Below the pieces are notes generated by a model, which had not been told where the DNA came from, ran no database searches, and saw nothing but the letters and a program-made list of their open reading frames with translations. The translations under genes were made by a program, and so were the position numbers. 64,000 nt of DNA from an uncultured Gammaproteobacteria bacterium (GTDB lineage: Bacteria > Patescibacteriota > Microgenomatia > UBA8517): NCBI GenBank assembly GCA_964635715.1, contig CAZWNZ010000001.1, positions 248,122 to 312,121 of the forward strand, written 5' to 3'. The stretch's first letter is position 1; each line of letters starts with the position of its first letter. This document shows positions 18,378-53,745 of this stretch, piece by piece.

Positions 18378-19970
<1,593 letters not shown>

Positions 19971-27706: not shown

Positions 27707-27835
27707 ATAGCACAAGGAATGTCACACAAATAAATACCAATAAACCAATAAATACCAATTTACAATGGAAACATTTAGAATTGGGCATTGGTGCACATTG
27801 GTACTTATTTGAAATTTGGCGTTTCCTGCGCTGTG
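27707..27835 (+). other. 23S intervening sequence 1 (5' domain)
   Basis: The 22-nt block cacaaggaatgtcacacaaata is identical to the 16S insertion; shares taccaat repeats and ggaaac...gggcattggt. Confidence 0.6.
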
Positions 27836-28029
27836 CAGGATGGGGTTGTAGGACTCTAATGTGAGATCTCTATTTTAGTAGTAGAACAGTCTGGAATGGC
27901 TGATCAAAGAAAGTGAAAATCTTGTATACAAAACTAAAATAGGCTCTAGGAGTATCCTAAGTACCACGGAACACATATTCTGTGGGAATCCGGGGGAACC
28001 ATCCTCCAAGACTAAATAAGACGAAAGAG

Positions 28030-28771: not shown

Positions 28772-28874
28772 CAGGAATGATTAATAAATACCAATAAACC
28801 AATAAGTATCAATCTCCAATTAAAACTGGAATTGGGAATTTGGAATTGGATTATTTGTAATTTGTCATTCCCGT
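28772..28874 (+). other. 23S intervening sequence 2 (helix-45 site)
   Basis: Inserted between ccgtgccttg and agagcgcgggtgtggtaggggagcgttcc; aataaataccaataaaccaataa is identical to IVS 1. Confidence 0.6.
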
Positions 28875-30263
28875 GCAGAGCGCGGGTGTGGTAGGGGAGC
28901 GTTCCAATTGCGGTGAAGGTGAACCGGAAGGTTTGCTGGAGCGGTTGGGAGTGAGAATGTCGGCTTGAGTAGCGTACAATACTAGTGAGAATCTAGTACG
29001 TCGAATGTCCAAGGTTTCCACTGCAAGATTCGTTCACAGTGGGTTAATCGGTTCCTAAGGCGAGGCCAAATGGCGTAGTCGATGGACAATTGGTTAAAAT
29101 TCCAATATATGTGTTAAATCGAAAGATCCCGCAAGGGATGAGCTAGGGATTGACTGAGCAGGAGTTTTGAAGCTTTTTCGTGAAGTAGAGTGCAGAAATC
29201 GAAGTAGTTCTGACTGGAAAATCCGTCAGAATGTTTAATTAAGATGGTGCAAAGTTCTCCGCGAGGAGGGCGATTTCAAACGCTTCAGCTTACAAGAAAA
29301 GATTCGTAGCGAGAGTTAACATATGCCGTACCGCAAACCAACACAGGTGGACTGGGGGAGCACCCTAAGACGATCGAGAGACAAATCCTCAAGGAACTCG
29401 GCAAAAAAACTACCCGTAACTTAGGGAAATGGGTTGTCCAGCGCAAGCTGGATTGCAACTAAAGTTTATTGGTCGACTGTTTATCAAAAACACAGGCCCG
29501 TGCAAAAGCGAAAGCTGAAGTATACGGGCTGACGCTTGTCCAGTGCCGGTAAGTTAAGAGGAGGGGTGTTCTGAACTTGTTTCAGGATGCTCTGAATTTA
29601 AGCTCCGGTGAACGGCAGCAGTAACTATAACTGTTCTAAGGTAGCGAAGTTCCTTGCCAGGTAAGTTCTGGCCCGCATGAATAGCGTAACGAGCTAATAA
29701 CTGTCTTGAGGGTTTACTCGGCGAAATAGCGATGGCTGTGAAGACGCGGCCTACTTCCACATGGACAAAAAGACCCCGTGGAGCTTTACTGCAGGTAGAT
29801 ATTGCTTTCATATTTTTTGATTGTCTAGAATAGGTGGGAGCCGCAAGGCGATCTTGTAATACCACTCGTTGAGAAATGTGAGGCTAACTCAATTCCGATG
29901 GAAACTCGGAAGAGGAACGTGTTTGCCGGGCAGTTTTACTGGGGCGGTACCCTGCCAAATTGTAACGCAGGGACGCAAAGGTTGGCTTTCTACCGATGGA
30001 AACGGTAGTTTTAAGCGTAAAGGTTTAAGCCAGCTTGACTGCGAGGGAGATGTCCCGAGCAGGTACGAAAGTAGGTCTTAGTGATCCTCCGAAGCACAAT
30101 GGGTGTGCTCGGAGCTTAATGGATAAAAGCTACCCCGGGGATAACAGAGTAGTCGCGCCCGAGCGTCCATAGCGACGGCGCGGTTCGCTACCTCGATGTC
30201 GGCTCATCACATCCTGGCGCTGAAGAAGGTGCCAAGGGTCGGTCTGTTCGCCCGTTAAAGTGA

Positions 30264-30428: not shown

Positions 30429-30464
<36 letters not shown>

Positions 30465-31900: not shown

Positions 31901-32333
31901 ATGGGGGATTTTTTGTGGGAAAATGCTATAATCGCCCTAATGACAATTGAATCTGATTTTTTGAGTTTTAAAGATCCTGAGAAGTTTGTTGCCTCGGTGC
32001 AAGTTAAACCTATTTGTGTAAAAGACGTTGTAAATGCGGCTTTGCAAAAAATTGTCAGAAAAGAAAATTGGCTAGAGAAAGATAACCACCCAGTAGCCTC
32101 CGAAAGTCCTATCCACGAAATTGAATATTAGGGTACGTACAAGGTCTGACCTTGTATGTATTATATTGCTCTGCGAGCTAGCTGAACCAGACCCAATCAT
32201 GACTCCGACAGATCCTGAAATTGAGACTCCAAAATGGGTAAAGCCGGAAGAAATTCCAAGCTATTTTACCTCCAATTTCGACCCCAAGGTTAAAAAGTTT
32301 TTGGATATTTAAAGAAACTAATCTGTGAGGAAC

Positions 32334-33074
32334 TTAAATTTCTGCTATTCCTTTTGTACTTCTCTCTTCTGAGGAAAGCTCCTTATATCTTTTATAGAGT
32401 TTTGGTGCGTGTTTCTTAACCTCTTTTAGTAATTGTTCGTATAATTTATAAACATTTTCTTCTTTCAGATATCCTTTCGAAAAAGCTTGTTTTAGAACAT
32501 CGTCAATTAATTTTGGATCCCTGTTAACGATTTTTTCACCCAAAATAGCAATCATGGAGAGCGGGCTTTTTGATTCTTTAACAGATTGCTCAAGTAAGTT
32601 GTAACCTTCGAGCATTCGGGATTGTGTTCTTTTTGCTTTATCACCAAAAAATACTATCAACTCTCGTGGAACGGAATACCCCCAAGGTGTGTCATTTGAG
32701 CTAATTTGGGTAAGATGAGATTCTGGGGTTGAATTCGGTTCATGTTCACCAGCAAGTTCACCTTCGTCTCTTTCTAAAGGTTGGTTGATCAGCCAATAAA
32801 GTTCAGGATTATGTTCAGCTGCTTCCATTTTGAAGATTTGCCTAGTCATAATGACGTCACCATATCTATCCCTTGCCTCCTCAGGGCCATTCCTTCGGAT
32901 AACTTTATCTTTGACTATGCAGCCTTCAGACCAAGCCATTCTATTAACTTGATTTTCAACAGGTTGATTAAAAAAATCTTGACCATTATCGCCCAAGAGC
33001 ACATTATCGCTCCATTTACGGTCATATCTTCGGTCTCCTCCATAACTTGCTTCAGTCATGCTTGTATTATACAA
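32334..33074 (-). CDS. hypothetical protein
   Basis: 246-aa ORF, acidic. Confidence 0.35.
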   Translation of the reverse strand: MYNTSMTEASYGGDRRYDRKWSDNVLLGDNGQDFFNQPVENQVNRMAWSEGCIVKDKVIRRNGPEEARDRYGDVIMTRQIFKMEAAEHNPELYWLINQPLERDEGELAGEHEPNSTPESHLTQISSNDTPWGYSVPRELIVFFGDKAKRTQSRMLEGYNLLEQSVKESKSPLSMIAILGEKIVNRDPKLIDDVLKQAFSKGYLKEENVYKLYEQLLKEVKKHAPKLYKRYKELSSEERSTKGIAEI

Positions 33075-33110
33075 CTTTTGTAAGGGTGGGGAATTTGGGG
33101 GGAAAAGAGT

Positions 33111-33671
33111 TTAAAAGCCGTTTTTCCTTTTGTAATCCAACCGTTTTATGAGTAAATTTTCGTTGTAGCCGCCCTCCCGTGTGTGTTTTTCTTCCAGTGC
33201 ATTCATTTGCCGATCAAGAAGATAGCCACAGCGAATAAGCAGATCTATCAGGTAGTTTACTGTGGTTTCTAATCCCTCTTTTCCTTCTAATCCTAAAACA
33301 GAAGGAATAGAGGTGGTAGATGGGTAGGGAGGATTAGGCGTTTCAAAGAACCGACGCAATTTAAAAAGCCGCCTGTCATTTTTGTTCCAGCGCGGTAGTT
33401 TTTCCCTTCGCAATATATCTTCAAAGTCTTCAAGTGCCTCCATTCCAGAGGATTTTGCTACATTATACAAGTTTAGCTTACGGCTCAAGCTTCTTTCGGA
33501 AGACCCTTCGACAATATTTTGCTTTAGGCTTCTTAGTGCCTGTTTAATTTAGTCTCTTTGTCTTCCATCTTCAACTCTCCCGTAGTATTTAGGGGTAAAA
33601 TCCCAGCCCAAATCAAAGGCTATTTGGGAAAGTTTATAGCTAATAAGCTCTTTATATCCGCTCTCAGCCAT
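33111..33671 (-). pseudogene. four-helix-bundle protein ('23S rRNA IVS protein' family) with a suffix domain, interrupted by one in-frame TAA at about 33550
   Basis: MAESGYKELISYKL...QNIVEGSSERS...LNLYNVAKSSGMEALE; a single frame runs from the ATG at 33671 to the stop at 33111, apart from TAA at codon 41. Confidence 0.45.
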
Positions 33672-33758
33672 AATTTATTTTATCATCCTAATTCATCTTG
33701 TCCTTCTAATCCTTCTGGGGTATAATACCCATACCAATAAGAAAGGTGGATATGATCA

Positions 33759-34880
33759 GTGACAACAAAATCAACTTCTAAAACAGAACCAACAATGGCT
33801 GAGCTCTTGGCTCGTGCCAAGAACAAAATTCAAAGGTTCACAAAAGGCCAAAGAGTTGAGGCAGTGGTTCTCTCCAAAACACCTTCCATGGTCATTTTTG
33901 ATATTGGTGGAAAAAGTGAAGGTTTAGTTAAAGAAAAAGGCTACACAGACGCAAAAGAGTTTATCGAAGGGCTAAAAATAGGGGATAAAGTTTCTGTTAC
34001 TATTTTAGTGCCTGAATCCCGCGATGGAACAATAGTACTAGGCCTTAAAGATGCCATGCATGACGTTTCTTGGGACAAACTTGAAGAAGCCAAAAAGTCT
34101 GGTGAGGCAGTTCCTGTTTTGGGTAAGGGAGTTGGAGCCCCCGGGTTTGTGGTTGAAGTAATGGGCATTGAAGGATTTATTCCAACCTCTCAAATGGGCA
34201 AGGAAATCACCGGAAATGCACAAAACTTGGTTGGAAAGTACTTCAAAGCCCGTGTTATGGAAGTTAATAAAATGGATAAAAAAGTAGTTCTTTCAGAGAA
34301 AGAAGTGTCAGAAGCAGGGGATATTGCCTTAACAAAAGAAGCATTAAAGAAGATTAAGGAAGGGGATGTTTTTGAGGGCGAAGTTAGCACGGTTGCAACT
34401 TTCGGGGCATTTGTTAAAATCGAAGTCCCTGTTGAAGTTAAACTAAAAACCAAAAGCCAAAAGCAAATAGCTGCCGTGGAAGGCCTTGTCCACGTTTCAG
34501 AGCTTTCATACTCCCGAGTCAATCTTCCGTCTGATGTCATTAAAGTCGGCGATAAGGTAAAAGTCAAAGTATTGGCAGCTCATGAAGGAAAATTGGCGTT
34601 TTCTATCAAGCAGGCTAAAGAAGATCCTTGGCTGGGAATTGAGAAGAAATTTAGGCCTGAGGAAAAAGTTTCCGGTAAAATTGTCAGAGTTTCTGACTTT
34701 GGATACTTTGTTGAACTTCTCTCTGGAGTTGAAGGACTTATTCATATTACCCAAGTTCCTCCTTCCATGAAGCTTGGGATTGGAGACGAAGTAAAGTGTA
34801 ATGTAGAAGAAGTCAATGTAAAAGACAAACGTATTGCTTTAGGTTTAGTTCTCACCTCAATTCCGCTCGGGTATAAATAA
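33759..34880 (+). CDS. rpsA: 30S ribosomal protein S1 (four S1 domains)
   Basis: Repeated S1 folds: GQRVEAVVLS..., GKYFKARVMEVN..., GDVFEGEVSTVATFGAFVKI, GKIVRVSDFGYFVEL. Confidence 0.7.
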   Translation: MTTKSTSKTEPTMAELLARAKNKIQRFTKGQRVEAVVLSKTPSMVIFDIGGKSEGLVKEKGYTDAKEFIEGLKIGDKVSVTILVPESRDGTIVLGLKDAMHDVSWDKLEEAKKSGEAVPVLGKGVGAPGFVVEVMGIEGFIPTSQMGKEITGNAQNLVGKYFKARVMEVNKMDKKVVLSEKEVSEAGDIALTKEALKKIKEGDVFEGEVSTVATFGAFVKIEVPVEVKLKTKSQKQIAAVEGLVHVSELSYSRVNLPSDVIKVGDKVKVKVLAAHEGKLAFSIKQAKEDPWLGIEKKFRPEEKVSGKIVRVSDFGYFVELLSGVEGLIHITQVPPSMKLGIGDEVKCNVEEVNVKDKRIALGLVLTSIPLGYK

Positions 34881-34887
34881 GATTTAT

Positions 34888-35202
34888 TTGACAATTCCTT
34901 TTTCGTATTATTTAATGTGCCTGATGACTGAAGGGGAAAACAATAAAGACGAAACACCTCGACTGGATTATTTTGTAAATAATCACTATTTGGAAATATC
35001 AAGACGGCCACAGGAGGAGATTGATGAATTCAAACAATTAGTTTTGCAGTTTATGCAAGTAACACAAAAACTTGCTCGATTTTTACACCCTGATAATACA
35101 AGCAGGTCAATAGATTCTTTTGAAAAATTATTTAAATTCCCCCTGGATGTTCTAACTTCGATTGTGAGAAAAATAAACGAGTCGAAAGAAATGAATAAAT
35201 AA
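34888..35202 (+). CDS. hypothetical protein
   Basis: 104-aa ORF. Confidence 0.25.
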   Translation: MTIPFSYYLMCLMTEGENNKDETPRLDYFVNNHYLEISRRPQEEIDEFKQLVLQFMQVTQKLARFLHPDNTSRSIDSFEKLFKFPLDVLTSIVRKINESKEMNK

Positions 35203-35534
35203 AATTTGACTTCTTTCTTCCTAAATTGTATAAAACTATATGGCTGGAATCGAAATTCCACGAATAAATGATGATAGAATAATATTCCCAGAGGGAACCC
35301 AGAAAGGGAATGTCAAGATTTACTGCGGAACCTGTCCATTAAATATTGACTGTCACGGTTATGATTCAAAAGGATTTGCAGAGATAGATAGGCCTCGCAA
35401 TATCAACCGCGGCCAATCACTTGCTACCTACATAGAGGAAAACGCTTCTTGCATAAAACAATAATATTTCTTGATAAAATATTCAATATTAATATTGGTA
35501 CTTATTGGTATTTATTGGTATTATTGCCTTAATG

Positions 35535-36971
35535 GCATTTCACTCAAAATACGTTTGTCAGCAATGCGGTTATGAATCTACAGGCTGGATGGGCAAATGC
35601 CCCGAGTGCGGAACATGGAATTCTCTTGTTGAAACGGTAGTTGAAACAAATTCCAACTCACAATCTCCAAGTTCCAAAAAATTTTCAAATTCCAAATCAC
35701 AAACTATCAAACTTTCCGATATCAAATCTTCATCAATTAAGCGTATTTCGACCAATATTTCGGAACTGGATAGGGTACTTGGTGGGGGTTTAGTTCCCGG
35801 ACAAGCTGTTCTTATTGCAGGAGAACCGGGGATCGGCAAGTCTACTCTTCTTACCCAATTAGCAGCAGAGTTGTCAGTCGGAGTTAGTCAAAGTCGGTCG
35901 GCTGAGCCGTTAGTTAAAACTAGTCAGAAGTTAGCCAAAGTTAGCTATGATACTAACCGCGCTAGCGGACCAACTATGACTAATTTTAACCGAAAAACCG
36001 TTCTCTATGTTTGTGGTGAAGAATCATCCTCGCAGGTTGCTGTGAGAGCCAAAAGGCTAGGTGTAAAAGGTGAAAGTATAGAACTTTTAGAAGAGACTGA
36101 TGTTGATAGTGTGATCAATCAGCTATCAACAATTAACAATCAACTATCCGCTGTTATTGTTGATTCTATTCAAACTATGACTACAGGTGATTTAACGGGG
36201 ATGGCAGGAAGTGTTGGACAAGTACGAGAGTGTGCGTTTCGGTTGCTTAAAGCCGCCAAAGAGAAAAACATTCCTTTATTCCTGGTAGGGCATGTTACCA
36301 AAGAAGGAACGGTGGCCGGCCCTGCGGTACTGGCCCACATTGTTGACACAGTACTCTGGTTTGAAGGAGACAAGACTTTAACCACACGCATTTTGAGGGC
36401 CGTTAAAAATAGGTTTGGCCCCACAGATGAGGTTGGGGTATTTGAGATGGTAGATAGCGGATTAAAACCAATGGATAATATATCAAAAGCCTTTTTGGAG
36501 AAAGGTAAAAAGCAAGTTTCCGGAAGTATTGTGACGTCAGTTTTGCAGGGAACCCGCCCAATTTTAGTTGAAATTCAGGCTTTGGTTGTACCCACAAAAC
36601 TGGCCTTTCCGCGCCGTATTGCGCAAGGAATTGACTCAAGACGATTGGAACTCCTTTTGGCAGTATTAACAAGGCGCTCCGGACTCCCGCTTTATGATAG
36701 TGATGTTTTTATAAATGTTGCGGGAGGTTTCAAAATCATGGAGCCCGCGAGTGATTTGGCAATTTGTATCGCAATTGCCTCTGCTTTTTATGATAAACCC
36801 CTGTCCGGTAATATTATTGCGGTTGGGGAAGTAGGGCTTTTGGGAGAAATCCGGGAGGTAGTTGCAGAGGAAAAACGCATTAAGGAAGCTAAACGCTTAG
36901 GTTTTACTGAGGCTGTTTCCTCAAAAAATTTTGGATATCTTAGTCAAGTTGTGAATCGGTTGCTGAAGTAG
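35535..36971 (+). CDS. radA: DNA repair protein RadA/Sms carrying a ~40-aa in-frame insertion after Walker A
   Basis: Zinc finger CQQCGY...CPECGTW, Walker A GEPGIGKST, KNRFG motif, Lon-like C-terminal domain. Confidence 0.9.
   Translation, partial: AFHSKYVCQQCGYESTGWMGKCPECGTWNSLVETVVETNSNSQSPSSKKFSNSKSQTIKLSDIKSSSIKRISTNISELDRVLGGGLVPGQAVLIAGEPGIGKSTLLTQLAAELSVGVSQSRSAEPLVKTSQKLAKVSYDTNRASGPTMTNFNRKTVLYVCGEESSSQVAVRAKRLGVKGESIELLEETDVDSVINQLSTINNQLSAVIVDSIQTMTTGDLTGMAGSVGQVRECAFRLLKAAKEKNIPLFLVGHVTKEGTVAGPAVLAHIVDTVLWFEGDKTLTTRILRAVKNRFGPTDEVGVFEMVDSGLKPMDNISKAFLEKGKKQVSGSIVTSVLQGTRPILVEIQALVVPTKLAFPRRIAQGIDSRRLELLLAVLTRRSGLPLYDSDVFINVAGGFKIMEPASDLAICIAIASAFYDKPLSGNIIAVGEVGLLGEIREVVAEEKRIKEAKRLGFTEAVSSKNFGYLSQVVNRLLK
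35872..35992 (+). repeat. MITE-like repeat element inserted in-frame within radA
   Basis: gtcagtcggagttagtcaaagtcgg ... actaaccgcgctagcggaccaactatgactaattttaacc; near-identical copies at 44138-44215. Confidence 0.55.
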
Positions 36972-37497
36972 TGTTTTTGTCATAAAAACATCTAGTCATT
37001 ACCTCTGCATTTTCTGAGTATCCACTTAAGCATCCATATTCACGAGCCAAGGTTCCACCTTTGTCATAGCTTATTATTTTGGTTCCTACTGCTATTCCTA
37101 TGGCTATGGCAGAATTCATTTCATCGGCTCCGTAAACGCTGATAACTAAATCATCAATATGTATAGCTCCGTCGTGCTTTGGAAGTTCGTTATTCGGTTT
37201 ATTGAGTGAATCGCACCGTTCCAGATCCTGCCTCTGCGAATATGCATGTAATAAAGCCATGCGTTTTGAACTTTCACTGACGTTTTCTCCAATTTCCTCA
37301 GTTTTTATAAATGCTGAATTTTTCCAGGTAATAGATACGGCAAAGTTAATGCCATGAAATTTTGGCAGAGAATCAAGTGAATCACGTACAACTCGTGCCG
37401 AACCGACAATGTTATTGGCAAGAAACTTTTTCTCTTTAGATATTGTTTTTGATTTTTCAAAAGATAAGTTTTCCAACCCAAATATCTCTTTAAACAT
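36940..37497 (-). CDS. hypothetical protein
   Basis: 185-aa ORF; overlaps the radA 3' end. Confidence 0.3.
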   Translation of the reverse strand: MFKEIFGLENLSFEKSKTISKEKKFLANNIVGSARVVRDSLDSLPKFHGINFAVSITWKNSAFIKTEEIGENVSESSKRMALLHAYSQRQDLERCDSLNKPNNELPKHDGAIHIDDLVISVYGADEMNSAIAIGIAVGTKIISYDKGGTLAREYGCLSGYSENAEVMTRCFYDKNTTSATDSQLD

Positions 37498-37640
37498 ACT
37501 TGTATTATATTCTATAGTGTCAATATTAACAAGTTATCCACATTTATTTTTGAGGAATTTTTTTGCCCGAAAATACGGAATGAAAGCTAGTTAAAAAAAC
37601 TATGGGGAAGTATATTTTATAGTATATTTACGTTATAGGG

Positions 37641-37670
37641 TTTGACAAATTTGACAGCGGGGTGTAACAT
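37641..37670 (+). promoter_or_regulatory. putative promoter TTGACA-17-TAACAT
   Basis: Motif spacing; followed by ~660 nt lacking ORFs before the sortase gene. Confidence 0.35.
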
Positions 37671-38335
37671 TTCTTTGAACCTTGAAAATTAAGGGAGGAT
37701 ACCCGTCCTGACCTTACCGTTCGCCTTCAGGTACTATTCGTACACGGCCCACGGAGCAGTTTCAGGAGGGTTTCACAAATTGCTGAAGCTAATTTTGGCA
37801 ATTTGCTCAAAAAAAGAGCATCGCCATCGTTGGGTTCTCCTCTAAAATAACCTTAGCGGAACTCGCCACGAGTAGAGATGCTCTTTCAATTACTTAACCA
37901 GACCTTTCGTAAAAAATGTCTGGACATGGGATTTGTCTTGCGGACAGGAAACTTTACTAACAATCAAGACAAATCGTAATCAGACTAAAACGATTATCAT
38001 GGCTTGTCAAGCCCCTTTGAGTGGCAAAATTGGCTTTGGTAGGGACGGGTGGAATATAAGCGAAGCTTGGCACTGAGCGCATAGCGCTCATTGTAGGGCA
38101 AAAAAAAGAGAGCGCTTTGTTCTGGATTTGAGGGACGGGTGGAATTTAGGGCAGGAATTCTACCCGCTCCTCAAGCTTAGAATGGGCGCTCTTTTTTTGC
38201 GGAATTCTACATAGATCCTATGACAGGATTCAAGAGCACTCGCAATTCATTGCGAGGATGAATTGAACGCTGACAGGCGTTCTAACCAGAACGCCATTGG
38301 AGCCGATTTTTTGTGATTAAATTAATATAATCAAC

Positions 38336-39022
38336 ATGTCTGGATACAATTTTATAAATTTGATAGAAGGCATAACTCCCCAAGAGGTTAATGTTGTTGC
38401 GGCTTCAAAAAAGGAAGATACAGAGCCCAAAAAAAAGCGTTTTTCAATAAAATTGACCAAGATGCTGGCTTTAATTGGTATTGCTATTTTGTTGATTTAT
38501 TTTGCTCCGATAGTATTTAATTTTATTAAATACAGACTTTCCAACAACGAAGTTAATAAGCTTACCGAGGCGGCTCAAAACGCCACAGAAAGAGCCTTGC
38601 CGCCTCCGGACCCAACTCTGCCCAAAACCAACCGTTTGTCCATCCCTTCAATTGGTGTGGATACGGAGATAGAGGAGTCGACCTACGACAATTACGAGAC
38701 AGCACTCAGGAAGGGGGTCTGGAGAGTATCCAATTTTGGTGAACCTGACATAACAGGGGCTCCGATTATTCTAGCTGCTCACAGGTTCGGATATCTGGCT
38801 TGGACTAATTCATACAGGCACTATAACTCTTTTTACAACCTACCAAAAGTTAAAGAGGGAGATATTGTTACCATAGCCTGGGAGCAAAGGGAGTATAGAT
38901 ACGGTGTTTATAAAACTGAGCAGGGCGAGGAAATTACCGATTACTCAGCTGATCTTATTCTTTATACATGCGAAAGCTTAAGTGGTAGTGAGAGGATTTT
39001 TGTATACGCAAAACTGATTTAG
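38336..39022 (+). CDS. sortase (cysteine transpeptidase)
   Basis: N-terminal TM; catalytic His in ILAAHRFGY; TLxTC motif LILYTCESL; RLSIPSIGVDTEIEE beta-strand signature. Confidence 0.75.
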   Translation: MSGYNFINLIEGITPQEVNVVAASKKEDTEPKKKRFSIKLTKMLALIGIAILLIYFAPIVFNFIKYRLSNNEVNKLTEAAQNATERALPPPDPTLPKTNRLSIPSIGVDTEIEESTYDNYETALRKGVWRVSNFGEPDITGAPIILAAHRFGYLAWTNSYRHYNSFYNLPKVKEGDIVTIAWEQREYRYGVYKTEQGEEITDYSADLILYTCESLSGSERIFVYAKLI

Positions 39023-39049
39023 TCCTGTAGTATTGACAAAATAATAATT

Positions 39050-39310
39050 ATGAGATACAATGCAGCCCTGATGAAAAAGTTAATAGCGATAGTACTTAGT
39101 ACTATGTACTTAGTACTTGGCGCAAACACAGTCAAAGCTGAAGACACAGTTACCGTCTGCACCCAGTATTACGGGGGCGGAGTTGTTTGTGGAGTTCACA
39201 CCCCTGTTGAAACCGGCATTGCAGACAACATTCCTCTTATAGCTTCAGGTTTTCTTGGCGCCAGCGGCGTTCTTGCATACTTGTCAAGAAAATTCAAAAA
39301 AACCGAATAA
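39050..39310 (+). CDS. small secreted sortase-substrate-like protein
   Basis: Signal peptide; C-terminal TPVETG, then a hydrophobic segment, then SRKFKKTE. Confidence 0.45.
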   Translation: MRYNAALMKKLIAIVLSTMYLVLGANTVKAEDTVTVCTQYYGGGVVCGVHTPVETGIADNIPLIASGFLGASGVLAYLSRKFKKTE

Positions 39311-39410
39311 GTAGTTAGTTAGAATCAGTCGAAGTTGGTCAAAGTTAGAGATTTGCTCTAACCAATTTCAACCAACTCCGACCAGTTTTAACTAAAAACT
39401 AAAACTAGGG
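39311..39410. repeat. palindromic copy of the MITE-like element
   Basis: gtcgaagttggtcaaagttagag and its reverse complement ctctaaccaatttcaaccaactccgac. Confidence 0.5.
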
Positions 39411-39672
39411 TTCTTTAACAAATCGAGGCAAAGCAAAGCGGAGTCCCTCTATAATTTTGGCACAAAGCGTGAACGAATAGTTCCAAAAAGCTGAGTGCGA
39501 AAATATGTGGGACAAAATTCTTTGGCAGATTATTAATCTGACGGTGAGATTCTGAAAATTAGAAGCTTAAGTTATTTTTTATTTTTCGTGTTTAGTTTTC
39601 AGACACTCACCGTTAGGTGGGTTCTCTGGCCAGAGAAATTTTATTTCAATCACACAAATAAGGAGGTGTGAG

Positions 39673-40725
39673 ATGAAAAAGACACTCTTTTTCATTTTTG
39701 TAATTCTTGTATTGGTTTCGAGTGCATCCTGCACTCAATCTGCAACCAAAACACAAGTTGCAGATATTGGTATTGACAGGGAAGCAACCGTTGTTCTAAC
39801 AGAAGTTGTTGAGGCAACGGAAGCACCCGCTACAAGTGAACCGGCAGCTGTAAATACAGAATCGGTTGTATACACCGTACCCAAGAACGCGATTCCTTTA
39901 ATAGATGGAAAGATAGGAGCTGTAAAAGGTTTCTTCTACGTTCTGAATAAGGAAGATCCGTATACCGCCGAATATCCATACCAGTCGCTCGTTATGATCA
40001 CTCTTGGCAACGGCAAGATCGAGATCGGAAAATACAGCGAAGCACTCACCGCCAGCGAAACTGAAGGCAATATTTTTGCAGATGTTTGCGCTGAGGTAGG
40101 CGGTTGCTCGGCTGTCATCTCCGGCTATACCGCTGGGCATGTTGGTATCACCGTCATTTTCGCCGGGTATGAAAACCCTGACGACTCATTGATTGGTGGT
40201 ATCAAAAATATGTTTGAACCCAGCAATTGCGGCGGATCGGGATGCAACACAATTTTTGCTCATAACATAAAAGGCAATGCATTAACCTTCGAAAAGAAGG
40301 CCAATGTCGTCGTAGCAAAATTCCTGACCCCGGCCGAATCGCCGTATGCAAGCGTCAATTTCAGATATGATGGTGTTCCTTCGGGAGCAATCGTCATACG
40401 GGATGATGCTAAAAACATCATCGGCCACGAGTATTTTCTGACCGATAAGGACGCATTCGTTTCTGTTCCTGAGGGCGGTGGCACTCTTATCTATTGCGGT
40501 GCAAAAGCCACAATTGACGATGTAAATTGCCCAGCGGGAACAGCGATGCTCTTTAAGGGCATAAAATCTGATGGTGCTACACCCTCAGATTTAAACTACA
40601 CGATTAATCTCGTGACCACTGACTCTTCAGCAATCCGGGTTGTGATGATCTACGCTGCTGAATCGTTCGAAGGTCAAATCGCCCAGTTTAAGGCGCAATA
40701 TCCTGACTGGGACTGGCCAGAGTAA
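39673..40725 (+). CDS. putative lipoprotein / secreted protein
   Basis: Signal peptide with a lipobox-like LVSSASC. Confidence 0.4.
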   Translation: MKKTLFFIFVILVLVSSASCTQSATKTQVADIGIDREATVVLTEVVEATEAPATSEPAAVNTESVVYTVPKNAIPLIDGKIGAVKGFFYVLNKEDPYTAEYPYQSLVMITLGNGKIEIGKYSEALTASETEGNIFADVCAEVGGCSAVISGYTAGHVGITVIFAGYENPDDSLIGGIKNMFEPSNCGGSGCNTIFAHNIKGNALTFEKKANVVVAKFLTPAESPYASVNFRYDGVPSGAIVIRDDAKNIIGHEYFLTDKDAFVSVPEGGGTLIYCGAKATIDDVNCPAGTAMLFKGIKSDGATPSDLNYTINLVTTDSSAIRVVMIYAAESFEGQIAQFKAQYPDWDWPE

Positions 40726-40873
40726 TAAAGTAACAAATGTTTGCCTCGATTAGGCCCTGCTTAAGCATTTTGCTTTTTCTTTCACCGTTTTGGTGTTTGA
40801 TTAAGTAATTTGTTTTTGCAGGGCCGTTCGACTTAGCGAATAATTTCACTTATTATTAATTAAGTCGAACGAA

Positions 40874-43780
40874 ATGAAAAAATACTGCTCAAATCTCCTT
40901 TACCCATTATTAATTATTTTTTTGGTAGGCTTCTTGGCTTTCAAAAATTATGTTCCCGGTACTTTTCTTTCCGGTTGGGACACACTCCATCCTGAGTTCA
41001 ATTTTCATCTTTATTTAAATAGAATTTTATCCGGTGTTTGGCAGGAACACCAAGGGGTAGGGGCCGTTGCCGCCCAATCCCACGCAGCAGAACTTACAAG
41101 AATAACTTTCCCTTATTTTTTATCTTTAGTTTTGCCTATTAATTTAGTTAGATACGCTTTTATATTTTTGACTTTAGCTATTGGGGGGATAGGACTTTAC
41201 TATCATGCAAAATATATACTTTCAATTTCTTTGGAAAAATCCGTAAAACCGGCGGCTTTTTTAGCCTCAATTTTCTATATTTTAAACCTCGCGACAATTC
41301 AGCAATATTATGACCCATTAGAAATGTTTACGGTTCATTTTGCTACACTTCCGTGGCTATTTTTCCTCGCAATTAAATATCTTCGCGAAGGTAAAAAGAA
41401 AAATATAATTTGGTTTTCAGTTGTTACGATTCTTTCATCATCCATTTCTCACACAGCAACACTTTTTTATGTTTATTTCGGTTTGTTTTCCTTATATGTT
41501 TTAACGGTTGCTCTTTTGACAAAAAGTAAAGGCAGATTTAAGAGAGGAGGATTTTTGGTTGGATTAACTCTAATATTAAACCTCTTTTGGTTGGGACCAA
41601 ATGTCTATTATGTTACAAAAGAGTCTCAGACAGTTAGCAATTCGCAGATTAGTAAAACCTTTTTGACAGAGGCGTTCCTGCAAAGTCGCGCTTTTGGAGA
41701 TTCCCAAAATCTGGCTCTTTTAAAGAACTTTCCATTTAACTGGCGGGAGTTTGATTTTTCAGAAAATGCTTTTGTCGATCAAATGGCTCCTTGGATCTCT
41801 CATTTGGGAAAACCTTATATAAAGGAGATTGGCTATGTTTTTATGGGTTTGTCGCTTTTGGGAATTGTTGTGGCCCTTTTTCGAAAACAAAAATATGCCC
41901 TTTCATTTTTGCCAATTTTGGCCGTTTGTGTGATTTTCTGGATTAATGAAAATCCTCCATTTACGGTAGTTTTTGCATATTTGAGGCAAAATATTCCTCT
42001 TTTTGCAGAAGCGCTGAGATTTCCATTTACTAAATTTTCAATACTACTCATCACCTGTTTATCTGTTTTTCTAGCATTTTCTTCTCATTTTGTTTTAAGA
42101 ATTTTTGCCAAAATCAAGTTGCAATTTCTAGTTGTTCCGGCAATTTTGGCTTGTTTTATCTATTACACACTACCTGCCTTTAATGGATATTTTATTGATC
42201 CGGCCATGAAGGTTGATATTCCAAATGAATATTTCCAGGTTTTTTCTTGGTTTGAGAAGCAGGATTCTAATGCTCGTGTGGCAAAGTTTCCCATTCAGTC
42301 TTTTTGGAACTGGGTTTATTATTCGTGGGGTTATCAAGGTGCGGGCTTCACTTGGTTTGGAATTCCCCAAGCAACAATGGATCGTGAGTTTGACCGCTGG
42401 GGTCTTTACAATGAGGACTTTTATTATCAGGCTTCAAACGCTCTTTATTCGGGTAATAGCCAGGCACTCTATAACGTTTTTGACAAATATCAAATTAAAT
42501 ATTTTCTTCTTGATGAGTCTGTGATTAATGCGGGAGGGAATTCCAAAATCCTCTACACAGAAGAGCTGAAAAAAATGATCGCTGAATATCCCGATTCCAT
42601 TCATGAAGTAGCAAAATTTAACTTTTTAACGGTTTATGAAACTAAATTTGGTGATTATGACAAATATGTTTGGGCTCCAAGTGAATACAAAGAAATTAAT
42701 ACGGACATGACATATGCAAAAGTAGATCCCTTGTATGCAACTTATGGGGATTATATAGAGGATGGAAATATTAGTTTTCCATTTGTAAATATGGATAAAA
42801 GGGGAGATATAAAGATTTTTGTTGTTGAATCTAACCCTGCAACAAGCTCAGCTAAGCTAACAATTGAAAATATAGAAACAAATGATAAAGTAGATCTAAA
42901 TATATCAAATACTATTAAAACGAGCCTGGAGAGTGGCAACGGTTTTGAAACGGCACATAACTGCGATATTAAAGGAATCGGAAGTGTCTATAGGGACTAT
43001 GTAACAGATGGGGTATTGTATAGGGCGGAGGATGGCGGAGTTTCCTGTGATTATGCAAATTATCCGGATTTGAAGTATTCCCAGGCATATATCCTTCATA
43101 TAGTTGGAGAAAATAAAGAAGGTCGGAGTTTAAAAATTTATCTAATTAATTACCAGACTGAAAGAGCAGATCTAGAAGAACTGCTGCCGGAAGGTAAGTT
43201 TGATGAAACATATTTTATTTATCCGTCTGTTTTGGATGGGTCGGGATACACTCTTGATTTTGAGACGCGTTCCTATGGGAAAATTGCTTCGGAGAATCTC
43301 ATTTCTACAGTTGAATTTTATCCTGTTGATTATGCTTACCTGGCGAACTATAAAACCAGTGGCTCAAAGATAATACTTGAGGAAAGTGTTTCTAATGAGA
43401 TTGGTCGGATTCAAAATAACCTCCAAATTAAATCGGTTAAAAAATACGTGACGTGGGGGTACTCGGTTGAGACCGAAGGAGCAGGTCTCATGGCCCTAGG
43501 GCAAGGCTACGAGCGCGGTTGGATCGCAGTCGGAGTTCAAGGTTCTAAATTCAAGGTTCTGGATCACAAAATGGTCAACAGTTGGGCAAACGGATGGATA
43601 GTAGACAATAATCAAAGTTGGTCAAAGTTAGTCGGAGTTGGTACTAACGGCAAAGCCGACCAATTACAACCAGTTTCAACTATTTACTTGTTTTTCTGGC
43701 CCCAGGCCCTGGAGTGGGGAGGAATGGCGGCAGGGGTGATTACACTAATATTTATTTTGGTTAAAAATAGTCGAAGTTAG
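40874..43780 (+). CDS. large polytopic membrane protein (GT-C/YfhO/arabinofuranosyltransferase-like) with an extracytoplasmic C-terminal domain
   Basis: About 14 TM helices in the first 480 aa, then a ~480-aa soluble domain and a C-terminal TM; the last 60 codons and the stop codon come from MITE-like repeats. Confidence 0.4.
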   Translation: MKKYCSNLLYPLLIIFLVGFLAFKNYVPGTFLSGWDTLHPEFNFHLYLNRILSGVWQEHQGVGAVAAQSHAAELTRITFPYFLSLVLPINLVRYAFIFLTLAIGGIGLYYHAKYILSISLEKSVKPAAFLASIFYILNLATIQQYYDPLEMFTVHFATLPWLFFLAIKYLREGKKKNIIWFSVVTILSSSISHTATLFYVYFGLFSLYVLTVALLTKSKGRFKRGGFLVGLTLILNLFWLGPNVYYVTKESQTVSNSQISKTFLTEAFLQSRAFGDSQNLALLKNFPFNWREFDFSENAFVDQMAPWISHLGKPYIKEIGYVFMGLSLLGIVVALFRKQKYALSFLPILAVCVIFWINENPPFTVVFAYLRQNIPLFAEALRFPFTKFSILLITCLSVFLAFSSHFVLRIFAKIKLQFLVVPAILACFIYYTLPAFNGYFIDPAMKVDIPNEYFQVFSWFEKQDSNARVAKFPIQSFWNWVYYSWGYQGAGFTWFGIPQATMDREFDRWGLYNEDFYYQASNALYSGNSQALYNVFDKYQIKYFLLDESVINAGGNSKILYTEELKKMIAEYPDSIHEVAKFNFLTVYETKFGDYDKYVWAPSEYKEINTDMTYAKVDPLYATYGDYIEDGNISFPFVNMDKRGDIKIFVVESNPATSSAKLTIENIETNDKVDLNISNTIKTSLESGNGFETAHNCDIKGIGSVYRDYVTDGVLYRAEDGGVSCDYANYPDLKYSQAYILHIVGENKEGRSLKIYLINYQTERADLEELLPEGKFDETYFIYPSVLDGSGYTLDFETRSYGKIASENLISTVEFYPVDYAYLANYKTSGSKIILEESVSNEIGRIQNNLQIKSVKKYVTWGYSVETEGAGLMALGQGYERGWIAVGVQGSKFKVLDHKMVNSWANGWIVDNNQSWSKLVGVGTNGKADQLQPVSTIYLFFWPQALEWGGMAAGVITLIFILVKNSRS

Positions 43781-43803
43781 TCAAAGTTGGTTGGAACTGG
43801 ATT

Positions 43804-44142
43804 ATGGAAAAACTTAGAATCTATCAAACAGCTTTGGATTTAGTTTTGGAAATCTATAAGCTCATACAGCAAGATTCAAAACTTGCTAGAGATTGGTCGC
43901 TTTGCGATCAAATAAAGAGAGCATCTATTTCTGTGGTTGCCAATATCGCTGAAGGATATCTAAGATCCAAAAAACAATTCAAAAATTACTTACAAATAGC
44001 CTCAGGTTCAGCTAATGAAGTTGTAGCTCACTTGCAAGTGATAACAAAAGTTTATGGAAATAATACCGATAAATTACAAGAATCATACAAAGTTCTTGCA
44101 CGTCAAATAGGTGCATTCTCCAAGACTCTCGGCCAGAGCTAG
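43804..44142 (+). CDS. four-helix-bundle protein (TIGR02436, '23S rRNA intervening sequence protein')
   Basis: VANIAEGYLRSKKQFKNYLQIASGSANEV signature; flanked by repeat copies at 43768-43800 and 44138-44215. Confidence 0.8.
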   Translation: MEKLRIYQTALDLVLEIYKLIQQDSKLARDWSLCDQIKRASISVVANIAEGYLRSKKQFKNYLQIASGSANEVVAHLQVITKVYGNNTDKLQESYKVLARQIGAFSKTLGQS

Positions 44143-44215
44143 TCAGGAGTTAGTCAGAGTTGGTTTGCAGACTAACCGCAATAGCGGACCAACTTGACTA
44201 ATTATAACTAACTAT
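44138..44215 (+). repeat. MITE-like repeat copy that also supplies the stop codon of the upstream gene
   Basis: agctagtcaggagttagtcagagttgg...actaaccgcaatagcggaccaacttgactaattataac. Confidence 0.55.
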
Positions 44216-44389
44216 TGACCCAATACCCCATAATTCTTGACTTTTAGCCTCAAAAATGATAGTATGTCAACCTTAGGTGAATATTTGCTCTTTAAAATTT
44301 TTCCTCAGAAACACACCCTAAATTCATTTTAGAGGTGTTCGAACAATCTAAAAGAATTCAATTTTTGAAACACTGCATGGAGGTGCAGA

Positions 44390-45115
44390 ATGACAACCTC
44401 AAAAATAATTCCGTTCTACGAAGTTCCAATTGAGCTACTTGTTGCAAAGCAAGAACAATTGGCAAATAATGGCCATCGCCCGTTTTATTCGCCGGATGGC
44501 CAAGTTGCAGGGTTTATTAGCCCGTTTTCCGCGACCCGGCATGTTGCCCAGGTGCAAGTCGATGATGACGGTAAAATCGTCGCTTTTGACTTTGATCAAA
44601 TGGAACGTACTGATGGTCGAATGAATGTTCATGATCCTTGGGGTCATGCAACACCCAACGCAATGGTAGTTGTTTTGGAACGAACCAATGATGGTACGCT
44701 TCTTGTTCACTCGGTAAAGGAAGTCCGTCCATTCATGTATGATCACCGATCGGGTGTCAAAGGCATGACTATCATTGGTGTAACTGGTAAATGGGCAAAA
44801 TCACTGGGTGCAAATCCGGCTGAAACAGCTCTCCAAGGACTGATGGCAGATTCCGGCATTGAAGTCGACGAAGGTTCTGTCGAACTTCTCGGGATTCATA
44901 ATCCCAATCGTGCCTGGGTTGAGACCTGCAACGAAGTCTTCGTGGCGATTTTTAAGCGCAAGATTGTGCCTGTAGCAGATGGTACTCACGATCAGGTCTT
45001 GCCTGATGGTGTTTATCCCCTCGCGGATTTTCCGCTTGGACCAGATGCTTTGGTCAACTCTGTTCTTTGGCTTACCGCCAAGCATTTTGGCTGCATTTCA
45101 TCCAAACCCTTGTAA
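44390..45115 (+). CDS. hypothetical protein
   Basis: 241-aa ORF. Confidence 0.35.
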   Translation: MTTSKIIPFYEVPIELLVAKQEQLANNGHRPFYSPDGQVAGFISPFSATRHVAQVQVDDDGKIVAFDFDQMERTDGRMNVHDPWGHATPNAMVVVLERTNDGTLLVHSVKEVRPFMYDHRSGVKGMTIIGVTGKWAKSLGANPAETALQGLMADSGIEVDEGSVELLGIHNPNRAWVETCNEVFVAIFKRKIVPVADGTHDQVLPDGVYPLADFPLGPDALVNSVLWLTAKHFGCISSKPL

Positions 45116-51456: not shown

Positions 51457-51617
51457 TAGTGAGTGGACTCGCCGGGAATTGTGTGCACAATATCACACCC
51501 GAGCACTATCGATTCCCAAGAGGGCACGAACTTTAGTGAGTGGACTCGCCGGGAATTGTGTGCACAATATCACACCCGAGCACTATCGATTCCCAAGAGG
51601 GCACGAACTTTAGTGAG
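51457..51617. repeat. two tandem 77-bp direct repeats plus a third partial copy; each begins with the 3'-terminal 17 nt of tRNA-Ala(CGC) plus 7 nt of trailer
   Basis: Units at 51457-51533 and 51534-51610 are identical by eye; the third copy at 51611 runs into the tRNA. Confidence 0.85.
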
Positions 51618-51688
51618 TGGACTCGCCGGGAATTGAACCCGGAACTTATCAATGCGAATGATACGGTATACCGTTTGCCTACGAGCCC
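51618..51688 (-). tRNA. tRNA-Ala (anticodon CGC) with G3:U70; the D arm is atypical
   Basis: Reverse complement: GGGCTCG ... anticodon stem-loop TATCA-TTCGCAT-TGATA ... T arm CCGGG-TTCAATT-CCCGG ... CGAGTCC-A. Confidence 0.65.
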
Positions 51689-51897: not shown

Positions 51898-53745
51898 ATG
51901 CCCAAAAATACATATACAGTTAAAGAGGTTGCCAATCTTCTGGAATTTTCTACAAATACAGTTTACAAGTATCTTGATGATGGCAGTATTAAGTCGGTTC
52001 GTTTTGGGAGTGAGGGCCGATTCAGGATTCCCAGGACAGAAGTCGAACGTCTTCTTCAAGAGAGAGGGAAAACTTTACCTGAAGATTCAACCATATCAAA
52101 AAACCAAAATTTACATGGAATAAGAGGAATCCCTAGTTTATTTGATTGGTTTGTTGCATTTTTATCTATTTCGATAGGGTTTTCAATTTTTATCTTTCCT
52201 GTTCCAAGCGCTGTTCGGGTGGTCTTTGATCTAAATAAGTTTGTCATTCCGCTTCAGGTGATTTTATTGCTTGGTGGTTTTCTCATCTTGGTCTTGGATA
52301 TGTTTAGGATGCATGACAGCCGCCTACGCAAATCTATAAATTTAATTGTTGGAATTGACTACTTGGTAACAGCTCTTGTGTTTGCTTTTGCGGACAATTT
52401 TCCCTTGACCGTCGGTTATTTGGCGGTTGCATTTATTGTTATATTGTCAGTTTTTATAAAAATGGGCCAATATACAAGATTTCTGCTTTTTATAAACCTA
52501 TTGCTTGTTTTTCTGGGGATAGGAGTTTTGGGTTGGCCTGATACGTTTTTTCTTGCCGGTGTAATCGGAGTAAATTCAAAAAACTTAATAATTTTCTTTT
52601 CGATATGGTCACTTTTGATGATATTTAATGTTTACATGACATATTTTGCAATCAGAAAAAATAAACACCTTGTTTGGTTTCTTGCATTTCCAACAGCTCT
52701 AACATCTCTTTTGTATGCAACGATTAGTTTTACACAAGGGCTTTGGGCTAAGGCGATTTATTGTGTTGTTTTGTCGTCTTTTGCCGTAATTTTCCCCTTT
52801 GCTGACGAATTTGAAGCATTTACTCTGAAGTCAAAAAAAGAGGTGGCTGCCAGTTTTGCATGGCTTCTTGGTCTTTTCCTGGTCGGATCACTCATGCTTT
52901 ACTATATCTTTCGTTCATTTCAAAGTTATGGCTTCTTAGAACTGACTAATAGAGTCGATACCGCTAGTGATATTGTCACAAATTTCATGGATGGAAATAT
53001 CGCAAAGATCTCTGCATTTGCTGTCGACGAGGAGTTGATCGGTGCTATAGAAAACTATTCCGGGGACAATATCAATTTGGCAAATAATAAATTGAAACAA
53101 CTATACCAAGCGTCCAATTGGTCGATTCGAAGAGTGGTGTTAGTTGATAAGAACGGGATAATTCTCGATACATATCCTCTGAACCCATCAAGTCAGGGTG
53201 TAGATATTAGTAAACGTGACTATTTTGAAAGCGTTAAGGTAGGTGGTCAAACTTTCGTGTCGGGGATCGAGCAACCAAGCTCATCAGGACTCAGCCCTGT
53301 GGTTTTGGTTTCAGTTCCCATAATCGATTCTAGCGGAGATTTTTTGGGAGTTGTTATGGGAGATACCGATTTGGATGAACTTACAAGAAGAGTTAATCAA
53401 ATTAAATTTGGACAAAGTGGAAGTTATTTATTAGTAGATCAATTGGGTAAATATATCATTCCACCAACTAAGGATCAGATAATGGCAAAAGCCTCTGCCG
53501 GAAGTCCCGCATCGATGGTAGTTTTGGGTGAAAAAGGTACTTTGCAAGGAGAAGATTCTTTGGGAGAACTTTCTTTAATTGCCTATGTAAAAGTTAATAA
53601 ATACAGTTGGGGTATAGTGGCTCAACAACCGGTTGATGAGGCATTCAATCCATATAGCAAAACTGTCTTTATCACGTTTCTGATATATGTAACAGCAGGG
53701 GTAGGAAGTTTAATTCTTGTATTTTCGTCACAGAGAAAGCAATAA
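51898..53745 (+). CDS. fusion protein: excisionase-family HTH, then a polytopic membrane domain, then an extracytoplasmic Cache-like sensor domain and a final TM
   Basis: N-terminal VKEVANLLEFSTNTVYKYLDDGSIKSVRFGSEGRFRIPRTEVERLL (HTH_17 / excisionase-like); about 10 TM; the C-terminal ~230 aa look like dCache; last TM VFITFLIYVTAGVGSLILVF. Confidence 0.5.
   Translation: MPKNTYTVKEVANLLEFSTNTVYKYLDDGSIKSVRFGSEGRFRIPRTEVERLLQERGKTLPEDSTISKNQNLHGIRGIPSLFDWFVAFLSISIGFSIFIFPVPSAVRVVFDLNKFVIPLQVILLLGGFLILVLDMFRMHDSRLRKSINLIVGIDYLVTALVFAFADNFPLTVGYLAVAFIVILSVFIKMGQYTRFLLFINLLLVFLGIGVLGWPDTFFLAGVIGVNSKNLIIFFSIWSLLMIFNVYMTYFAIRKNKHLVWFLAFPTALTSLLYATISFTQGLWAKAIYCVVLSSFAVIFPFADEFEAFTLKSKKEVAASFAWLLGLFLVGSLMLYYIFRSFQSYGFLELTNRVDTASDIVTNFMDGNIAKISAFAVDEELIGAIENYSGDNINLANNKLKQLYQASNWSIRRVVLVDKNGIILDTYPLNPSSQGVDISKRDYFESVKVGGQTFVSGIEQPSSSGLSPVVLVSVPIIDSSGDFLGVVMGDTDLDELTRRVNQIKFGQSGSYLLVDQLGKYIIPPTKDQIMAKASAGSPASMVVLGEKGTLQGEDSLGELSLIAYVKVNKYSWGIVAQQPVDEAFNPYSKTVFITFLIYVTAGVGSLILVFSSQRKQ

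Follow-up and report, generated by a model that had tools for sequence, protein, structure and literature searches.

Intervening sequences (IVSs) of bacterial rRNA genes that carry an open reading frame (ORF) are the closest described counterparts of the element reported here. In Coxiella burnetii the IVS has a 28-bp terminal inverted-repeat stem with tandem GACAGAT heptamers before its S23p ORF, and it is excised by RNase III (PMC4990558). How IVSs arise and spread, and what role the encoded small protein has, are questions dating from the early 1990s (PMC4990558), and the idea that the ORF serves mobility is traced in a passage of the same paper to Ralph and McClelland 1993. We analysed a 64,000-nt stretch of a Microgenomatia genome (contig CAZWNZ010000001.1, positions 248,122 to 312,121; hereafter the window) in which a 112-amino-acid (aa) four-helix-bundle (4HB) protein is encoded between a 968-aa and a 241-aa gene, 13 kb away from the rRNA operon, and is bracketed by copies of a hairpin repeat. 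We consider that positions 43760-44221 probably form a hairpin-armed gene cassette of the ORF-bearing rRNA IVS kind, residing between protein-coding genes. The layout of this unit, its occurrence throughout the protein family, one inversion, one relocation, the gene-less hairpins nearby and purifying selection on the gene are established by the comparisons given below; coordinates are collected in Table 1.

The repeat is built from decamer-periodic units of the motif AGTYRGTCRR; with as many as 3 mismatches allowed, the 17-mer AGTTAGTCAAAGTTGGT has 10 matches where 0.22 would be expected. An nhmmer profile identified exactly four full palindromic copies (35913-35992, 39316-39395, 43609-43683 and 44139-44212) and two left halves (35873-35898 and 43760-43792), the second of which covers model positions 4-36 with E = 1.6e-4. 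Strong hairpins are predicted for the full copies. The original prediction had placed a left-half repeat directly upstream of the 4HB gene and a full repeat directly downstream, and the last copy of each kind agrees with it. The 968-aa gene ends within the upstream left arm (43760-43795), which provides its final codons and its TAG stop (43778-43780). Downstream of the 4HB gene the palindromic repeat occupies 44139-44221 (its nhmmer copy folds at -28.6 kcal/mol, z = -4.7) and opens with an internal left arm that repeats the upstream one (direct-repeat family D2, 94% over 18 nt); the relative L003 (contigs of relatives carry L numbers) has one extra unit at this position. In the folds, the right arm has two partners, the internal left arm for its inner part and the upstream left arm for its outer part, and the minimum-free-energy RNA fold pairs 43780-43793 with the outer right arm and leaves the ORF in the loop. 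Scored against orthologues, the window left arm pairs at 12.5-14.5 with the right arms of L007 and L009; for the window right arm the scores are 19.5 against the L007 left arm and 14.5 against the L003 left arm. On its right side the insertion is bounded by the promoter at 44222-44265, which is unchanged at the empty site of L007.

The gene itself is intact and, as had been predicted, of the TIGR02436 type: in a profile search its product scored 83.9 bits against TIGR02436 (cut-off 24) and 82.3 bits against PF05635 (cut-off 33.8), above the curated cut-offs of both. An AlphaFold model (pLDDT 96.7) consists of four long bundled helices, for which XCC0516 (2GSC, TM 0.85) and BT_0352 (2RLD, TM 0.81) were the best PDB matches in Foldseek; phmmer comparison with 2GSC gave E = 1.7e-7, and 2GSC is a homopentameric ring as cited in PMC4990558 from Lin et al. 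2006. The Avd protein of diversity-generating retroelements (DGRs) is a more distant fold match (4DWL and 8UB7; Foldseek E ~0.2, 11-13% identity). The polar motif DQ..RA..S...NIAEGY.R ... GS.NE is present, and the columns invariant in 39 family sequences are D35, Q36, R39, S43, N47, E50, Y52, R54, G68, S69, N71 and E72. Compared with the 94%-identical L003 orthologue the gene has a dN/dS of 0.068 and is strongly constrained by purifying selection; with a protein conserved above its neighbours, it is not a decaying passenger. A TATAAT box is found 7-12 nt 5' of the start codon, between left arm and gene, in most close relatives. The window and L003 lack this box and the gene starts 23 nt past the preceding stop codon; in the window it probably rides on the transcript of the 968-aa gene. 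PADLOC and PHROGs searches gave no meaningful match, comparison of 43500-44450 with known RNA families returned noise only, and no intrinsic terminator was detected at the cassette locus.

Contigs encoding the nearest homologues of the 112-aa protein were located, and each homologue was positioned relative to the genes that neighbour the window copy. Left arm, gene and right arm recur throughout the orthologous cassettes (57-94% identical; L007, L009, L003 and L093-L105), with the left arm 5' of the gene and the right arm at or just past the stop codon, and since the same layout is kept at other sites and in the other orientation, the bracketing in the window is not a coincidence. Within a conserved neighbourhood of the genes for S1, RadA and a sortase, the unit is found in three states. 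In the window and in L003-L006 (4HB identity 94%) it lies behind the 968/977-aa gene in the order left arm, gene, left arm, right arm. In L009/L093, L095, L098 and L099 (62-76%) it occupies the slot between the sortase gene and an 86-aa gene and is antisense to both; L009 and L093 are one genome sampled twice, so this second state represents four related genomes. In L007 (about 77-78%) the unit fills the same slot in the orientation opposite to that of the second state. The antisense placement between the sortase and 86-aa genes is probably the ancestral one. The upstream left arm in L007 and L009 is made of AGTTGGTC-type units, and the complementary right arm overlaps or follows the stop codon.

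Both slots can also be read in empty form. In the window the slot at 39020-39050 is unoccupied and the next promoter stands directly after the sortase stop; in L007 it is the other slot that is empty (10960-11000, reading CCCTGTAGTCTTGACTTTCAGCCTCAAAAATGGTATTATG), the stop of the 937-aa gene being followed directly by the promoter equivalent to window 44222-44265. The existence of both empty forms gives the cassette unit (~455 bp) sharp edges, and in both slots the unit lies directly 5' of a CCTGTAGTnTTGAC-type promoter region. The unit was thus inverted in place in one relative (L007) and moved by ~4.7 kb in the lineage of the window, landing 5' of a promoter. Divergence between the window and L007 is similar for the 4HB protein (~77%) and for S1, RadA and sortase (77-80%), which accords with a gene inherited vertically and moved within the genome, not one newly acquired. 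Between the window and L003 the 4HB protein is 94% identical and its neighbours 42-87%, and between the window and L009 the values are 76% for the 4HB protein, 68% for S1, 72% for RadA and 51% for the sortase. Eight further loci (L094, L096 and L100-L105, with 4HB proteins 57-76% identical) lie outside this synteny and have no similarity to the genes neighbouring the window copy. The suggestion that the gene forms a mobilisable cassette therefore holds in part: gene and arms are a discrete unit, with antisense, inverted and relocated states and clean empty sites, but it is not a frequent hopper and has descended mostly vertically at one locus, as conserved as RadA and S1 or more so.

The units of the arms differ among close relatives (AGTTGGTC, AGAATTCG, AATCAGT, GTCGGAW, CATCGGA and TTATAAATNG), yet the downstream arm complements the upstream arm in every case. 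When left and right arms were scored in a cross-matrix, own pairs had a mean of 14.7 and cross pairs a mean of 9.8, with a block structure of group-specific compatibility; left and right arms evolve as a pair between groups of relatives. Two of the loci outside the synteny (L096 and L100) have arms of (TCAGTTA)n, the complement of the TAACTGA heptamer. Arrays of that heptamer, unexplained, have been reported in Beggiatoaceae, cyanobacteria and Bacteroidetes (PMC4679880), and a link between them and the Microgenomates arms is possible. A third such locus, L094, is a 38-kb metagenome contig that carries two family genes less than 1 kb apart on opposite strands (634-960 and ~1256-1590).

The same layout extends across the family. 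Distant loci were taken from a profile search of genome contigs (among the matches listed, 29-51% identity and many phyla) and used as an unbiased sample, in which the 120 nt before the start were tested against the 120 nt after the stop for an inverted repeat scoring at least 13. Such a repeat flanks 79% of the 78 distant loci listed and 1% of 594 neighbouring control ORFs (Mann-Whitney p = 2.6e-32); with metagenome loci added, 94 of 131 non-redundant family loci (72%; L012-L161) pass the threshold. The arms are tandem arrays of ~3-6 units, for example (TAGGCAG)x6 facing (CTGCCTA)x6 in Mesorhizobium or GGGTGTA heptamers in cyanobacteria, with a lineage-specific sequence and a period that, where clear, is mostly 7 nt and otherwise 8, 10 or 11 nt. 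At least 11 of the fetched family loci lie within or beside rRNA genes. The 4HB gene is inside the 23S gene, at the position of the second 23S IVS of the window, in L019, L114, L116, L121, L124 and L125; it is inside the 16S gene, in the region of the 16S IVS of the window, in L035, another Patescibacteria genome; and it is in rRNA spacers in L034, L108, L109 and L113. As these have the same inverted tandem-repeat arms, rRNA-borne and free-standing copies share one layout, and the connection to ORF-bearing rRNA IVSs that had been drawn from the window is borne out by family members elsewhere at the same 16S and 23S sites. We found no paper on inverted tandem-repeat arms around free-standing family members, in a literature coverage that was incomplete, and a prior description is possible. 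A figure on CRISPR-associated proteins in a CRISPR survey lists '23S rRNA IVP' among its domain abbreviations (PMC10910872); if the family was scored there by association with arrays, one may speculate that the tandem-repeat arms explain it.

Gene-less copies of the hairpin lie close to the cassette, two of them in frame in proteins. The insert in RadA adds ~40 residues between the Walker A loop and the VLYVCGEES strand, and over 56 nt it is 80% identical to the hairpin downstream of the 4HB gene (35920-35975 against 44139-44194; D19). L007 has a diverged version of it at the same site; L009 and L095 have none. The insert in the 968-aa protein (43609-43683) adds ~23 residues and is confined to the window, L003 and L007 being without it. 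The L003 orthologue (~5230-5300) carries, within a few residues of that site, another in-frame insert derived from repeats, WSELVASETNSLADKLRLISTN. Including the two left halves, all six AGTYRGTCRR hairpin copies (35873-44212) are on the + strand and are confined to 8.4 kb of the 64-kb window, and this clustering in one orientation suggests local spread around the cassette. The gene-less hairpins resemble miniature inverted-repeat transposable elements (MITEs) in occurring as several copies with terminal inverted repeats and in differing by presence and absence among relatives, but they show no target-site duplication, and the genes in the surrounding 14 kb include none with a transposase domain.

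A cassette of this construction would have several routes of change. At the DNA level the inverted arms would let the segment flip, and the direct repeat of the left arm would permit gain or loss of the gene by recombination, loss leaving a gene-less hairpin. A transcript reading through in either direction would fold into a long stem with the gene in its loop, and RNase III would cut this stem as in rRNA IVSs, so that the insertion would be tolerated within rRNA or operons and beside promoters. The 4HB protein would most likely be a nucleic-acid-binding ring that acts on the repeat arms; this is speculation, guessed from its pentameric relatives and from Avd. A wider proposal, which we put forward only tentatively and regard as somewhat doubtful, is that PF05635/TIGR02436 genes across the bacteria are as a rule the cargo of one type of hairpin cassette with inverted, lineage-specific tandem-repeat arms. 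One element type would then lie behind both the ORF-bearing rRNA IVSs and the free-standing genes annotated as 'four helix bundle protein'; loss of the gene would give rise to ORF-less IVSs and to hairpin MITEs, in-frame protein insertions among them; the ring-shaped protein would be the element's own repeat-binding factor; and some of the heptamer arrays of cyanobacteria and Beggiatoaceae might be explained as well.

Several observations weigh against regarding the window unit as an IVS-like cassette. No transposase or integrase was found, and there is no target-site duplication at the filled junctions when these are compared with the empty ones. Most relatives keep the cassette at one locus, and one inversion plus one relocation could be ordinary repeat-mediated rearrangements rather than dedicated mobility. 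The upstream half in the window is short and pairs with its own right arm at 8.5 in the ungapped DNA test, which is the level of chance. The hairpin in the RadA gene of L007 uses units somewhat different from those of the L007 cassette arms, which weakens the case for the resident cassette as the source of every hairpin. The protein encoded by the Coxiella IVS is probably not produced at all, and its ORF is decaying (PMC4990558). Mismatches in the arms are of the G.U type in 119 cases and of the A.C type in 126, with no asymmetry, and so there is no strand-specific signature of RNA-level selection. Conversion between the arms may maintain their pairing in the DNA, or the pairing may be of use to transcripts from either strand.

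One alternative, which we judge unlikely, is that the 4HB gene is an ordinary resident host gene and that its repeat arrays are cis-regulatory, as an operator or attenuator bound by the ring protein or as an insulator or terminator; the inversion and the relocation would then be incidental rearrangements promoted by the repeats, with no mobile unit. The constancy of the slot in L009/L093, L095, L098 and L099 despite 50-60% divergence of the neighbours would fit this, as would the very strong purifying selection, the position of the TATAAT box of the relatives between left arm and gene, and a number of units per arm compatible with a multimeric binder. However, a purely resident gene does not explain the members inside rRNA helices and spacers in unrelated phyla. 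The loci outside the synteny that are still 57-76% identical, and the gene-less copies of the same hairpin scattered nearby, coding regions included, also count against this alternative. Another possibility, and a decidedly improbable one, is that the protein is the mobilising factor of the hairpins in the manner of RAYT and REPIN, the gene-bearing unit being autonomous and the gene-less hairpins non-autonomous MITEs. In its favour are a gene placed between inverted copies of a repeat that is dispersed nearby, the confinement of all six copies to 8.4 kb in one orientation, the 80% identity of the RadA hairpin to the one 3' of the gene, and the joint change of arms and protein between groups of relatives. 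Against it, the family has no known catalytic activity, the relatives with solved structures being small helical rings; target-site duplications were not found; and the RadA insert is old, being common to L007, where it has drifted to units different from the cassette arms.

It is very improbable that MITEs inserted independently on either side of an unrelated small gene and survive there as they do in intergenic DNA generally. The weak pairing of the upstream half with the downstream right arm in the window, and the insertion of MITEs of this repeat family at several nearby sites, are what such a coincidence would lead one to expect, but it is already contradicted by the orthologues that keep left arm, gene and right arm at other sites and in another orientation, and by the presence of the layout at 72-79% of family loci against 1% of control ORFs. 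Finally, that the gene encodes the Avd accessory protein of a DGR is scarcely credible. The fold does resemble Bordetella phage Avd, weakly as the Foldseek E value and identity given above indicate; the closest solved structures are nevertheless the non-DGR proteins 2GSC and 2RLD, no reverse-transcriptase domain was found among the called genes of the surrounding 14 kb, and no template/variable repeat pair lies near the gene, and the DGR reading was dropped for lack of these two components.

That this genome has both rRNA IVSs and the protein family, as had been noted from the sequence, is correct; its IVSs are ORF-less and are found in both 16S and 23S genes. The three hairpins form one sequence family with ACCAATA-type units of ~10 nt. 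In sequence the rRNA IVSs are no closer to the MITEs or cassette arms than expected by chance, and what they have in common is architecture.

A second family gene of the window, at 33111-33671, was said to be one continuous frame interrupted by a single TAA at codon 41, and reading of the frame agrees. In alignment the TAA falls on the Gln that is invariant in the DQIKRA motif, so the change is from CAA to TAA, and the stop recurs in an independent Logan assembly (SRR8925806) in which the gene is called as pieces of 40 and 119 aa. Reassignment of the stop codon was ruled out as an explanation since TAA is the commonest true stop in the window and terminates 15 of the 27 long ORFs; together with its independent recovery, this indicates a real, recent nonsense mutation and not recoding. 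Assignment to the suffix-domain family is supported by one route and not by the other. In profile hidden Markov model (HMM) searches the paralogue stays below the curated cut-offs (TIGR04258 35.0 against 40; TIGR02436 19.1 against 24; PF05635 23.3 against 33.8), but with the Gln restored it has more than 500 full-length homologues, and among the 120 listed (67-79% identical, 184-213 aa, E down to 1e-90) the name 'four helix bundle suffix protein' is given to several and PF05635 is assigned to many. The two family genes of the window are only distantly related to one another (35% over 49 aa). The 'ccaataa' and 'ggaatttgg' flanks that had seemed IVS-like resemble the three rRNA IVSs no more than expected by chance, and no flanking inverted repeat was found at the suffix-type gene in the window, L011 or L162; the proposed association of this paralogue with IVS-like or MITE-like repeats was therefore abandoned. 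With a 246-aa ORF the paralogue makes up a 1.66-kb segment (32064-33720) that L007 lacks between its 5S rRNA and S1 genes.

Table 1. Features of the window, with the evidence or remarks for each
Feature	Position	Strand	Evidence or remark
rRNA operon	16S 18374-19969; tRNA-Ile; tRNA-Ala; 23S 27410-30580; 5S		
ORF-less IVS hairpin in 16S rRNA (approximate limits)	18465..18565	+	D12; ~10-nt ACCAATA-type tandem units
ORF-less IVS hairpin in 23S rRNA (130-nt insertion)	27707..27836	+	Hairpin at Rfam model positions 274-296
Second ORF-less IVS hairpin in 23S rRNA (approximate limits)	28776..28875	+	Site of 4HB genes elsewhere
Four-helix-bundle-plus-suffix gene with one TAA (33549-33551)	33111..33671	-	No repeat arms
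Gene-less copy (left half and full hairpin), in frame in RadA	35873..35992	+	nhmmer, fold, alignment
Empty slot between sortase and 86-aa genes (TAG followed by TCCTGTAGTATTGACA...)	39020..39050	+	Filled in L007, L009, L095, L098, L099
Intergenic gene-less hairpin downstream of 86-aa gene	39316..39395	+	-32.7 kcal/mol, z = -8.2; nhmmer
Gene-less copy, in frame near C-terminus of 968-aa membrane protein	43609..43683	+	nhmmer, alignment
Cassette left arm, ~2.5 decamer units of AGTYRGTCRR type	43760..43795	+	nhmmer and direct-repeat families D1-D3
Intact four-helix-bundle gene, 112 aa	43804..44142	+	TIGR02436 / PF05635
Second, internal left arm	44139..44166	+	Overlaps 4HB stop codon; direct repeat of 43760-43795
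Centre of downstream hairpin, small CCGC/GCGG stem	44167..44187	+	Common to the copy inside RadA
Right arm ACCAACTTGACTAATTATAACTAACTATTGAC	44188..44221	+	RNA folds
Resident promoter of downstream 241-aa gene (TTGACT, 17 nt, TG-TAGTAT)	44222..44265	+	Promoter scan

The assembly around the cassette is reproduced by the Logan contig SRR8925806_55291, which is 100% identical to window 30874-44932 over 14,059 bp. A Microgenomates-type (Patescibacteria/CPR) placement of the genome is supported by its rRNA operon, with a long 16S-23S spacer and insertions in the rRNA genes, and by its proteins, whose closest homologues are in Gottesman-, Davies-, Roizman- and Levybacteria. Two segments between 5S rRNA and S1 are missing from the syntenic region of L007, that of the paralogue (32064-33720) and another at 30866-31904 that holds most of an EamA-family gene. 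The 16S-23S spacer (19970-27409) is ~7.4 kb long and contains tRNA-Ile, tRNA-Ala and several ORFs, among them one of 711 aa on the opposite strand (21974-24109). Further along the window, 51457-51635 holds a 77-nt perfect direct repeat in two copies, the first 25 nt of which occur once more across the end of tRNA-Ala(CGC), a minus-strand gene at 51617-51688; integration at that tRNA gene may have left this footprint. A 3189-aa ORF at 53717-63286 is built from many diverged internal repeats of ~300 nt each.

At the window locus the gene-in-hairpin unit is seen away from rRNA, and its neighbourhood is conserved, which allows a base-by-base comparison of filled, inverted, relocated and empty sites. 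If the layout holds throughout the family, it would give a large family of unknown function a cis-feature by which to define it, link IVSs to hairpin MITEs and explain the in-frame palindromic inserts in essential genes such as radA of reduced genomes, and direct tests would be possible in cultivable hosts, among which Chryseobacterium, Mesorhizobium and Nostoc have free-standing cassettes (loci L029-L031, L065, L080 and L059).

Several known systems share parts of this architecture. Repetitive extragenic palindromic (REP) sequences and REPINs with their RAYT genes (REPtrons) likewise have a single-copy gene between inverted short palindromic repeats that are also dispersed without the gene. 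Here, however, a 112-aa helical bundle takes the place of the Y1 (IS200/IS605-like) transposase, each arm is a tandem array instead of a single hairpin, and the dispersal seen is local only. Rickettsia palindromic elements (RPEs) are palindromes in frame inside essential protein-coding genes, where the added peptide is tolerated, and the window hairpins in RadA and the 968-aa protein are in frame in the same way; RPEs are not known to have an associated gene, whereas the window repeat brackets a conserved one. A comparison with integron attC cassettes would rest on a small gene followed by an imperfect palindrome whose structure is kept rather than its sequence, and the order left arm, gene, left arm, right arm is what would be expected from a single crossover of a circle into a resident hairpin; the window unit differs in having arms on both sides made of tandem units, and no integrase or attI was seen. 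The Avd protein of DGRs, a nucleic-acid-binding pentamer, has a related four-helix-bundle fold, but at 11-13% identity and in systems with a reverse transcriptase and template/variable repeats, which were not found around the 4HB gene.

The nearest likeness is to the rRNA IVSs. ORF-less IVSs, of the Salmonella type or like the three in the window, are hairpin extensions with complementary arms, in the window with tandem units of ~10 nt; they differ from the cassette in carrying no gene and in having no detectable similarity to its arms or to the MITEs. From the ORF-bearing 23S IVSs of Coxiella burnetii, Leptospira and Brucella the window unit is set apart by lying outside rRNA, the defining residence of that class, and abutting a promoter, and by having a further left arm inside. 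Purifying selection on its protein is strong, whereas the Coxiella ORF is decaying and probably not expressed, and processing of the unit by RNase III, an observed step in Coxiella, would be expected by analogy. In other respects the correspondence is close: the 'S23p' ORF belongs to the same PF05635/TIGR02436 family, the gene lies in the loop of a terminal inverted-repeat stem (clearly so in L007, in L009 and family-wide), short tandem repeats stand 5' of the ORF, heptamers in Coxiella and decamers at 43760-43795 in the window, and the total size is ~430-460 nt.

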